Positions 6,001 to 9,000 of a stretch of DNA of 11,676 nt are shown here, in pieces. This DNA is from a virus (taxonomy: Duplodnaviria > Heunggongvirae > Uroviricota > Caudoviricetes), in IMG/VR virus record IMGVR_UViG_2778261356_000005, positions 1-11,676 of that record, one strand, 5' to 3'. Made by a program: the position numbers. Positions within the stretch are counted from its first letter, which is position 1. Every line of letters begins with the position of its first letter.

Positions 6001-9000
6001 GCCACACAAAGGCCGTTTGTGTGTGTGCTAGTCGTGGAGTATGATTTACGGCAACCATAACGGCTCCTCGTTTACGTTGTTGGTTAGAAGCCCCGTTACT
6101 GCTCCAACAGTGCGGGGCTTCGTCGTTTCAATTGCTGAATTGCATGTATCAGCTCTTGTGGTATTCAGATTACATTTAAGTGAATACCATTTCAAGCTTT
6201 TTTGGGTATTCACTTTTGTGTTACACTGCATCCCGCTATTAATCGGAGGTGCAAACATGTCCACGAGTTCTGTTAACAATAAGTCACAGCAACTGAATGC
6301 CAGATTTCCACATGAAGTAGTGAGTGGCATTGAGGCATCCCTACAGCCAGGGGAAACTAAAGCGAATTTTATAGTTACAGCAGTACGCGGTGAGATCGCC
6401 CGCCGCCAAGCAGAAGGAAGAGGAGAAAACCCCCTGGTTTCTTCGCTCGATGCACTGGCGCAGGTGGAAAAAATCGGAGTCAAAGCAGCCGAGGAGATCG
6501 GGCAACTCGTCACCATCGCGCGTGAAGAACTCCAGCGTCGCAAGACCCAAGAATCAGAATAATAACTATCAGCGCCGTGGCGTGAGGAACTCCGGCGCAT
6601 TGCTTTACAGGGCAGTATCATGACCAACAACACACTATCACCAATACAAGACACGCAAACGCAAGATGATGAAATCATCCGGCAAAGGCAGTCAGAAGCC
6701 TGCGCCAGAGTTGAGGAAGAACTAACCAGAACAAAAATACCACCACCAGCGCCGCGCTTAGTGCCACCAGAAAAATTTGCCCTTGAAGATTTTGTCGATA
6801 AATACCCACGGCGGTTAAAAGCCACTAAAAACCGACCGCCTGGCTGATAGCCTTGTCCACCAGCCGTAAATGTGGCATTGTCGGCGATGCTCATGCGTTG
6901 GGGATAACGCGAAATTTGTGTCGAAGGGCCACCGTGACAGGTGGCCTTTTCTTTGCCTGTTATCCGGCAATTGTGGCGCTTCTTCACACAGTTGATATAA
7001 TTCCCCTGCACTGATCCAATTTTTTCGCAGCAGGTTAATTGTTCGCAAGGGCGCTCCGGCAACGGGGCGCTTTTTGTTTTTACCCACCAGCACAATAAAA
7101 ATCTTCATTTTCCATTTTTGTAAAATTTCATGCTTTCCGGACGACGGGCCATATGTCATTTTTTAGCAGAAGATTTTGCCTTGCTGGTGGGTAGCTTCTC
7201 GGTTAACACGATGTACCGTATAATCAGCACCGCGTGTGGTTACTGAATACGCTCACCAAAGTAAAACTCAGGCTGATATTCACGTATCAGCCTTTTTTCT
7301 TCTTCCTCCAGTTCACGTTTTTTGCGCTTACATGCCTGTAGCGCCCTCCCCTTCTGACTGGCACTTAACTGATATTGCTCTTTACGGCGAGAAAAGTCCT
7401 GTAATGCGCCCCACGGGATACCATAAGCCCCCGTTTTTCTGATTCCTGGTATCACATTCCTGAATACCCAGTTACTGAAACGATGGGCGAACGTGCCAGG
7501 AGTAACAGCTTTCCGACTTCTGGCGATCAGCTTGTAAAAACCGGATTCAGAAATGAGGCTATGATTTGGATTTCCTCGAATACCGTAGCTTAAAGCGACG
7601 GTTTTCTTTTCATCCGCATCTAGTGCTTTTAGAGCATCGCGTGAGTTACTTATTTCCAGAGCAACACAAACATCCTTTGCAACAAACCACGGATCACCGT
7701 TCAGATACACCACGCGAACGTTCACACTATCAAAGCGCAGAACGACCAGATCACGAAAATCACAGAATTTTTTTACATGACGTGCGTCACCCTTGCCCGT
7801 CACGGCAATATTTTTATTCATTTCTTTTTTACCTCACATACAAAAAACCCCGCATTGCACGCGGGGTATGAAAGATATTATTAGTGGGGATTGGCCTGTT
7901 CTCGTTGTTTATCTAACCATGCTTCTACATCTCTACGGTGCCAGGTATGTCGTCGTCCAATTCTGAACGGCTGAGGAAAACCATTATTCTCATCTTTCCA
8001 GAAATTGATGAATGCACTCATTGCTCCATATCGCAAGATTTTCATTACGTCTTTAGTAAATAAAATATCTTCATTGGTATTCATTTGCTGAACCTCCTCA
8101 ACCATTTACTACTCTTAAACCTTTCATACCACCGGATCTATTAATTACCCCTTTTCTCGCATCATCAAAAAAATCACCGACCCATTGCATCATGATCTTA
8201 CGCTGTTCTAGATAAATAGTTCTATTATAAATATCTCTTATTTTATCACCACTTTTATGCGCCAATGCAGCCTCGATTACATCGGGGTTAAATCCCTCCT
8301 CATTTAAAAGCGTACTCCACATCGAACGAAAACCATGTAACGTTACAATCCCTTTGAACTTGCTGGCAGCAATTGGGGTCTTGATAGTATTCCTCCCCAT
8401 AGGCGCATCTTTTGTTCTGGAGGAAAAAAACACATAACGCCCTCTTTTTATTTCCTGCATTGTTCTGAGGATACTAATAGCCTGTGATGACAAGGGAACA
8501 ACATGTTCACGATGGCATTTCATTTTATGCGCGGGGATAATCCACAAGCCAGAATCAAAATCAATCTCTGACCACTCTGCTTTAATCGCCTCACCTGGCC
8601 TGACCATTGTCAATATCTGGAATAAAAGTGCATTATGAGCTATTTGATAGGTATGAGGCACACTATCCCACCAGCTCAGAAATTCAGGCAATCTTTCAAC
8701 AGGTAGTGCTGCTAATGATTTATTTTTCTTTCCTGTGAATGCAGTCTTTATCTTAAGTAATGGATTTGCTTTCAATGCTCCACAATTTACAGCATAATTC
8801 ATAATTTCATTTAATCTTGATATTAATTTTTTTTGCAACGCATTCTTATCGGATACGGCATCCAGAGCATTAATAGCTACTGGTGCTGTAATTTTTTCTA
8901 TACTGTACTTACCAAAGAAAGGAACAAGATATTTGTATACTTCATATTCGATATTATACAGCGTAGGTTTCCGCAATTCAGATCCCTTTTTAAAAGCGAA

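Follow-up and report, generated by a model that had tools for sequence, protein, structure and literature searches.

Helper-embedded phage-inducible chromosomal islands (HE-PICIs) were published as a class of satellites by Tommasini, Mageeney and Williams in 2023 (PMC10111431). They are laid out in zones for integration (int, AlpA), Bro, replication (primase) and late functions (protease or capsid gene); passive continuation of helper late transcription into the satellite has already been proposed for them, and the founding HE-PICI excises late, at 2 h, after composite replication (PMC10111431). The DNA analysed here, called the window below (11,676 nucleotides in its full length, IMG/VR record IMGVR_UViG_2778261356_000005), carries an element with this zone architecture that sits co-oriented in a late gene of a Shiga-toxin (Stx) prophage; the feature under study is a hairpin followed by a T-tract, located directly in front of the gene for a Bro-N domain protein of the element (Bro-N). 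No terminator between alpA and the Bro zone is described in PMC10111431, in which terminators are mentioned for P4 eta and for fis, and the founding HE-PICI, 11capE, contains neither Bro-N nor a canonical terminator after alpA. The intrinsic terminator as a kind and the HE-PICI class are already known; new is a conserved canonical terminator (two in series in one class of relatives) directly before satellite genes that appear to lack promoters, within an operon that is probably driven by the helper antiterminator Q.

The island EcCICFT073 shares with the element the order int, alpA, Bro-like open reading frame (ORF), ylcI, icd-like gene and primase, and the replication zones of the two are closely related; it differs in being chromosomal and outside any helper operon. 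Expression of its ORF3, the next one after alpA, was AlpA-dependent in experiments (PMC6092414). All 68 of the 68 islands of EcCICFT073 type (loci L205-L272; positions 11712-11745 in L166) carry a conserved GC hairpin immediately behind the alpA stop, CUGGCGGC-acaca-GCCGCCA (-13.9 kcal/mol), with no T-tract; this hairpin may stabilise the 3' end, terminate in a non-canonical manner or serve as a binding site. In the satellite P4, an alpA homologue is located upstream of the Bro-network gene eta/kil, and termination decides the expression of eta/kil and of the downstream operon (PMC10111431). An alpA homologue followed by a Bro-network gene, with termination control in front of the latter, is common to P4 and to the present element, but P4 uses CI-seqA RNA-RNA pairing and translational coupling, whereas a plain intrinsic terminator is predicted here. 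A scan of the whole window against Rfam (E <= 1) returned no C4 or IsrK-type (P4 CI/seqA) RNA and nothing else of relevance.

In lambdoid late operons, Q-modified RNA polymerase passes intrinsic terminators throughout, and the genes behind these terminators are expressed by the Q-modified polymerase only. A canonical hairpin with a U-tract in the path of transcription from a Q-controlled late promoter is what the locus has in common with them. It differs in that the terminator belongs to an inserted satellite and not to the phage, and in that dependence on Q is, for this locus, a prediction.

The terminator in front of Bro-N

All genes of this region lie on the minus strand, in the order (5' to 3') int, alpA-like gene, hairpin, T-tract, Shine-Dalgarno sequence and Bro-N; coordinates are collated in Table 1. 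The alpA-like and Bro-N genes are 59 nt apart. A spacer of 13 nt separates the alpA-like TAA from the hairpin, and 20 nt (7841-7822) separate the T-tract from the Bro-N ATG; downstream of T6 these read GUAUGU, GAGG and ten A-rich bases. The T-run is present on the sense strand, and there is none on the opposite strand of the hairpin.

The stability of the hairpin alone (-14.3 kcal/mol) was compared with that of shuffled sequences (-6.4 +/- 2.1 kcal/mol), none of which reached it (0 of 200). In a consensus scan the hairpin ranked second among the terminator-like sites of the window and first on the minus strand. Under strict criteria (stem of at least 7 bp, at least five G-C pairs, at least five T within the next 6 nt), two sites were found on both strands of the window together, namely the Bro-N-proximal hairpin and a plus-strand site at 7047-7074, and dinucleotide shuffles gave 0.05 +/- 0.22 sites per window. 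The hairpin with T6 is a real feature, beyond chance. Its GC-rich stem falls in the range of 5-12 bp, the loop is short, the U-tract adjoins it and a stop codon precedes it, as is usual for intrinsic terminators, and 7867-7842 is best read as a genuine Rho-independent (intrinsic) terminator closing the int-alpA unit. A first reading of the window from sequence only (the sequence-only reading) had placed a strong terminator at 7842-7866, 20 bp before the Bro-N ATG: the terminator is borne out, its position was right to within 1 nt, and the distance was exact. As a terminator it is ordinary; its placement is mildly interesting.

Conservation was assessed in 83 loci (80 IMG/VR loci with Bro-N relatives and three E. 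coli loci), which comprise 27 upstream variants. All Bro-N relatives with at least 80% protein identity are preceded by a GC hairpin and T5-6, the last T being some 20 nt from the ATG. About 77 related loci keep the module of hairpin, T-tract, Shine-Dalgarno sequence and Bro-N, and the gene ends that precede it are of at least five non-homologous kinds. The tract of T5-T6 is invariant across the hairpin-bearing relatives, and a Shine-Dalgarno sequence (GAGG, AAGG or GGG) is kept in all variants. Nine loops of 3-8 nt occur (GCA, CGCAA, CACAA, CCACGCAA, AUCAC, AUUAC, AUCAA, UCAAU and GCAAU). At stem pair 5 the portal-inserted class has U-A where most classes have G-C, both sides having changed, and the G.U pair in the stem of the window is A-U elsewhere; such pairing-preserving changes probably reflect few independent events. 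The variant hairpins fold with -12.2 to -14.1 kcal/mol. Pairs were taken from per-sequence folds, because MAFFT/RNAalifold misplaced the left arm, the loops being of unequal length, and gave no consensus.

BLAST homology among the Bro-N modules of the satellites starts within the hairpin (query positions 243/250, corresponding to window positions 7858/7851), which indicates that T-tract, Shine-Dalgarno sequence and Bro-N travel as a unit and that the hairpin is a mosaic junction. A further arrangement was found in class C satellites (inserted in P27-type terL; L002 2416-3037 and 16 related IMG/VR loci): two Phage_AlpA paralogues stand in series, each followed by a hairpin and T-run abutting the next start codon, with no room for promoters. 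Taken together with the EcCICFT073-type islands and 11capE, whose repeats lack a T-run, these loci show that a stem-loop behind alpA is general; what sets this Bro-N module apart is the canonical terminator, and nearly all copies of the module are in embedded satellites. In 73 of the 74 related loci with enough flanking sequence, a truncated co-oriented late gene is located 165-250 bp upstream of int; the interrupted gene is a gpA-type terL in 32 loci, a P27-type terL in 17, a portal gene in 23 and another head gene in one. The sole exception (L154 1-2566) is a near-identical satellite beside a chromosomal gene for a LysR-type regulator; its integrase is 99.5% identical, and the copy appears to be an off-target integration.

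The satellite within the helper late operon

The window is 100% identical to sequence of E. coli RM10466, in which an element of about 10 kb splits the gpA-type large-terminase gene (terL) of a Stx2c prophage. In the RefSeq annotation terL is split: the C-terminal part lies past the satellite, and a gap of 165 bp separates the upstream, co-oriented N-terminal fragment from int. The satellite occupies positions 59-9336, attR lying beyond the window, and its genes are arranged in the order int, AlpA-like gene, Bro-N, icd-like gene, primase (D5_N/DUF5906) and ClpP-protease/capsid fusion. Its insertion, its co-orientation with the interrupted gene and the order of its zones are those of the published class, and on these sequence features the element is an HE-PICI.

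In RM10466 the prophage genes (Q, tRNAs, stx2AB, lysis genes, terS and the N-terminal part of terL) share a strand with int, alpA and Bro-N and read into the satellite. The helper Q protein matches Pfam Antiterm (5.6e-52). Just downstream of Q, a promoter-like TTGATT...TAAATT is followed by ACCCGC-cgccga-GCGGGT and T6; this is the classic pR'-tR' layout, and the two sites are likely to function as pR' and tR'. The satellite is located about 14 kb downstream of the Q gene and of this pR'-tR'-like site. A copy of the helper pR'/Q-binding region within the satellite, through which Q could act in trans, was also sought, and rejected: short-word BLAST with the Q-downstream regions gave chance 9-11-mers only.

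The same satellite module was found in terL of a Stx1a prophage of an O157:H7 strain (L275), and 66 complete E. coli genomes carry the int-alpA-Bro module at an identity of at least 99%; among the matches listed for it are Shiga-toxin-producing E. coli (STEC) of serotypes O157:H7, O145:H28, O121:H19, O103:H2 and O45:H2. A toxin phage carrying the insertion is without a terminase until the satellite excises. In the Sakai prophages the terminases are intact except in Sp4, in which nu1 is disrupted by an insertion sequence. The ClpP-protease/major-capsid fusion of the satellite (59-1948, minus strand) is of the same type as the copy of the helper a few kilobases downstream (L001 1-1324), in agreement with the "late gene capture" reported for HE-PICIs. 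A literature search for transcript maps, whether of HE-PICIs or of the Stx prophages concerned, returned none.

Source of the Bro-N transcript

An intact Bro-N is present in 75 of 76 loci, and its dN/dS (0.14-0.32, at dS of up to 0.59) shows purifying selection; the gene is therefore functional and has to be expressed. A consensus scan returned no minus-strand promoter near the alpA/Bro-N junction. In a position-weight matrix (PWM) scan of the 300 nt upstream of the Bro-N ATG, the best score was 6.2, equal to the median best score of random same-strand 300-nt windows, and in the other four classes likewise no sigma-70-like site over the background median was found upstream of Bro-N. All promoter candidates upstream of Bro-N precede the hairpin. 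The 20 nt between T-tract and ATG hold the Shine-Dalgarno sequence only, so no promoter fits there, in agreement with the sequence-only reading, which had seen little room for a separate promoter. Its suggestion that a promoter inside alpA might serve Bro-N instead is not upheld: no site rose above background in the 300 nt of any of the five classes, and such a promoter would be no bypass, because its RNA would still meet the terminator.

Two weak candidate promoters, in the 3' end of int and upstream of int, were predicted by the PWM scan; the former (8251-8224) is possibly an AlpA-dependent alpA promoter (PalpA). The best minus-strand promoter-like site of the satellite is located upstream of the icd-like/primase operon (6167-6195), and its equivalent in EcCICFT073 reads TTGACG-18-TATAGT. 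This suggests that the replication zone has a promoter of its own and Bro-N none, and Bro-N is the one cistron between the terminator and the next predicted promoter.

From these data we lean, at slightly better than an even chance, towards the following interpretation: the terminator ends the int-alpA unit, Bro-N needs read-through, and the Q-modified late complex of the helper is the most likely source of that read-through. The terminator would insulate Bro-N from int-alpA transcription, and Bro-N, with a ribosome-binding site but without a promoter of its own, would receive mRNA solely from polymerase that passes the terminator. In the lysogen, unmodified transcription from satellite promoters would stop at 7842-7840 and Bro-N would be off. 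After induction, helper late transcription would cross terS and the remaining part of terL before entering int and alpA, and the Q-modified complex would ignore the hairpin, whereupon Bro-N and the genes beyond would be expressed. Since the satellite is co-oriented downstream of Q and of the pR'-tR'-like site, the Q-modified complex is the likeliest to pass the terminator, and the late excision of HE-PICIs fits the same interpretation. The anatomy and conservation of the terminator, the lack of a promoter signal and the embedded, co-oriented setting with a Q gene are seen in the sequence itself; that the site terminates efficiently in the cell and that the Bro-N mRNA stems from Q-modified read-through are predictions. 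The sequence-only reading had named antiterminated helper late transcription as one possible route to Bro-N; the co-oriented late-operon context, predicted to be Q-dependent, argues for it, and the read-through step itself is deduced. Its account as a whole holds for a terminator that is canonical and maintained, and fails for the promoter inside alpA.

A more far-reaching reading is put forward tentatively, at somewhat less than even probability. The terminator may act as a filter for the state of the polymerase, closed to ordinary polymerase and open to Q-modified late complexes of the helper, and usable only by an embedded satellite; Bro-N would then be a cis-wired sensor of the condition "helper late, satellite still integrated". 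Class C satellites would act likewise with their AlpA paralogues in series, and Bro-N could start the satellite replication operon or retune the helper late genes. If the terminator separates Q-modified from unmodified transcription, it constitutes a simple cis mechanism for timing a satellite regulator to the helper late phase; the elements interrupt the terminase gene of Stx1a and Stx2c prophages in O157:H7 and further STEC, so the timing of their excision and expression bears on whether the toxin phages are able to package DNA at all. If it is merely a leaky operon-internal stop, it is a matter of routine annotation.

Several points weigh against dependence of Bro-N on Q-modified read-through. 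The both-sided stem change (D clade) probably reflects a single evolutionary event, and the stems of two singleton loci are weakened (-8.3 and -8.7 kcal/mol). In 11capE, the sequence after alpA, which separates convergent genes, contains a 14-bp inverted repeat that is AT-rich and has no T-run; as this island lacks Bro-N and the terminator alike, the canonical terminator tracks the Bro-N module and not embedding. The copy of the satellite adjoining the LysR-type regulator gene retains the terminator. Strong-looking intrinsic terminators usually leak by a few percent, which is perhaps sufficient for a regulator, and activator-dependent promoters can escape consensus scans.

The main rival is a leaky terminator serving the promoters of the satellite itself. 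A partial (attenuating) terminator would set a fixed ratio of high alpA to low Bro-N expression from the int and alpA promoters, leak being sufficient and Q unnecessary. It is generally known that terminators inside operons commonly act in this manner, and the candidate promoters at 9377-9348 and 8251-8224 could supply the transcripts; in EcCICFT073, AlpA activates its own promoter (PMC6092414). The terminator kept in the off-target, non-embedded copy likewise favours attenuation, to which the near confinement of the module to helper-embedded co-oriented elements (73 of 74) stands opposed. The 9-bp stem of -14.3 kcal/mol with U6 looks efficient and not leaky, and the two serial terminators of class C would compound to very low levels without antitermination. 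Attenuation is held less probable than Q-modified read-through, though it deserves serious weight. Improbable, by comparison, is a Bro-N promoter that went unrecognised, dependent on an activator or an alternative sigma factor and starting transcription within or just after the hairpin, which would then merely end alpA transcripts. A start that skips the hairpin needs a -10 element inside the stem-loop, whose loop varies in sequence and in length, and the T-tract is only 20 nt from the ATG; A/T-rich -10-like hexamers do follow each upstream stop (e.g., AATAAT at 7882-7877, score 3.95), and activator-dependent promoters often match the consensus poorly, but the five classes have no homology upstream of the hairpin, and none of them scores above the background median.

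The inverted repeat could also have a function other than termination, as an RNA-stabilising or processing hairpin, a protein operator or the recombination boundary of the module. Invariance of the T-tract on the sense strand only argues for termination, and the both-sided stem change keeps pairing and not sequence; loops of 3-8 nt would alter the spacing of operator half-sites but are harmless to an RNA hairpin. With homology among the Bro-N modules beginning inside the hairpin, as at a mosaic junction, and with canonical PICIs retaining a hairpin without U-tract at the same place, for which some other function may exist, a non-terminator role is given a small probability. A satellite-encoded antiterminator, with the AlpA-like protein loading onto RNA polymerase in the manner of Pseudomonas aeruginosa AlpA or phage Q, is the most doubtful reading of all. 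It draws on a common name and on the fact that P. aeruginosa AlpA bypasses terminators immediately upstream of its targets (PMC7969949, PMC9371919), and the likeness extends to the name and to that terminator position only. P. aeruginosa AlpA is a Q-like protein of at least eight helices, with DNA contacts up to residue 142 and a ring at the RNA exit channel (PMC9371919). It is much larger than the 67-aa protein of the satellite and unrelated to it, with no evidence of homology; the latter is excisionase-like, a sequence search of the PDB gave for it a weak match to lambda Xis (E ~0.8) and no AlpA structure chains. Nor do the remaining ORFs of the satellite match any antiterminator family, and the helper Q-loading region has no copy in the satellite. 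The analogy between the Q-like P. aeruginosa protein and the Xis-like satellite protein was rejected. Masking of the hairpin by a ribosome at the upstream stop codon was also considered and rejected, as the stop-to-stem distance ranges from 7 to 23 nt among the classes and the geometry is not conserved.

Gene assignments and further features of the element

Table 1. Positions of the terminator, its flanking genes and the predicted promoters in the window.
Feature	Position	Strand	Basis or remark
Helper terS (DUF1441)	10502-10978	-	Pfam DUF1441, 8e-49
Helper terL, N-terminal fragment, gpA-type	9498-10505	-	Pfam GpA_ATPase, 3e-82; interrupted by the satellite
Weak candidate promoter upstream of int, TTGAAT-18-AAAAAT	9348..9377	-	PWM scan, prediction
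P4-type tyrosine integrase (int)	8098..9336	-	Pfam Arm-DNA-bind_3, Phage_int_M, Phage_integrase
Weak candidate promoter in the int 3' end, TGGTGA-16-TATAAT	8224..8251	-	PWM scan, prediction; poor -35
AlpA-like/Xis-like winged-helix gene, 67 aa	7881..8084	-	RefSeq start; PHROG 66
Terminator hairpin, ACCCCGCGU-gca-AUGCGGGGU	7867-7847	-	9 pairs, 6 G-C, 3-nt loop
T6 tract (U-tract)	7847-7842	-	First T is the last stem base; followed by G-U
Shine-Dalgarno sequence of Bro-N, GAGG	7832..7835	-	10 nt before the ATG
Bro-N domain gene, 193 aa, anti-repressor-like	7240..7821	-	ATG 7821-7819
Best minus-strand promoter-like site of the satellite, TTGAAA-17-TAATCT	6167..6195	-	PWM scan; upstream of the icd-like/primase operon

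A scan of genome contigs for the integrase returned only integrases of 34-40% identity from unrelated islands. The int stop codon overlaps the ribosome-binding site of the alpA-like gene, which consists of GGAGG 9 nt before the ATG at 8084; the start lies 13 nt past the int stop, and the stop codon (TAA, 7883-7881) is accompanied by a second in-frame TAA in tandem. The label "alpA" is only loosely right for this gene, judging from profile searches. The 67-aa protein did not match Pfam Phage_AlpA (PF05930) even at E <= 10, the AlpA proteins of the other satellite classes passing the gathering score of that family, and it matched HTH_17 with E = 0.004 and 17.7 bits, under the cut-off of 27; a relative in L004 (66% identical) scored 19.6 against a cut-off of 21. 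A match to PHROG 66, "excisionase and transcriptional regulator", was obtained (9e-7). Alignment with true AlpA proteins gave 18-25% identity and a common FP..G..W..V..W motif, and the gene, small and of winged-helix type, follows directly on a P4-type integrase, the position usual for the AlpA family.

The 193-aa ORF matches Pfam PF02498 (Bro-N) over residues 34-125 (1e-18, 68.2 bits, cut-off 25.6) and PHROG 2593, "anti-repressor", over residues 1-191 (7e-85); the coverage from residue 1 supports ATG 7821 as the true start of Bro-N. In the minimum-energy fold of the read-through RNA (7822-7880, minus strand), a lower helix is formed by UAUCUU, which follows the alpA-like stop, with GAGGUA of the Bro-N Shine-Dalgarno region. 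A similar, weaker lower helix is present in three of the four other classes, despite their unrelated upstream sequence. It consists of 3-6 weak pairs of low ensemble frequency and may dampen translation of Bro-N or be due to chance.

Between Bro-N and ylcI (6496-7095, minus strand) lies a degenerate homologue of the 3' part of the post-alpA ORF of EcCICFT073, with the residues KSAPLPER..CEQLT..RHNCRITGK, which RefSeq labels an icd-like pseudogene; the Bro zone is a mosaic built from remnants of modules. At 6167-6562 a divergent control region is found, in which a YlcI/YnfO-family gene (6257-6562, plus strand) faces the icd-like/primase operon, as is also the case in EcCICFT073. It resembles the repressor/operator switch of a satellite and could be a target of the anti-repressor-like Bro-N.

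On the plus strand, the strongest terminator of the window (12-bp stem and T-run, 7047-7074) stands behind a promoter-like GTGGCG-17-TATAAT (6973-7001). The pair (6973-7080) predicts an RNA of about 70 nt antisense to satellite genes, with no Rfam match; promoter and hairpin are conserved in EcCICFT073 (L166 ~12118-12016, opposite strand), and the predicted RNA is a candidate small regulatory or immunity RNA. A second antisense pair on the plus strand is composed of TTCTCG-17-TATAAT (7196-7224) and the hairpin AGGCUGAUAUUCACGUAUCAGCCU with T6 (7270-7293), and this pair (7196-7300) predicts an RNA of about 70 nt overlapping the Bro-N stop codon. Its TATAAT is conserved in one downstream-module family; other relatives carry at that place an antisense GGCGACC...GGUCGCC terminator with a T-run instead.

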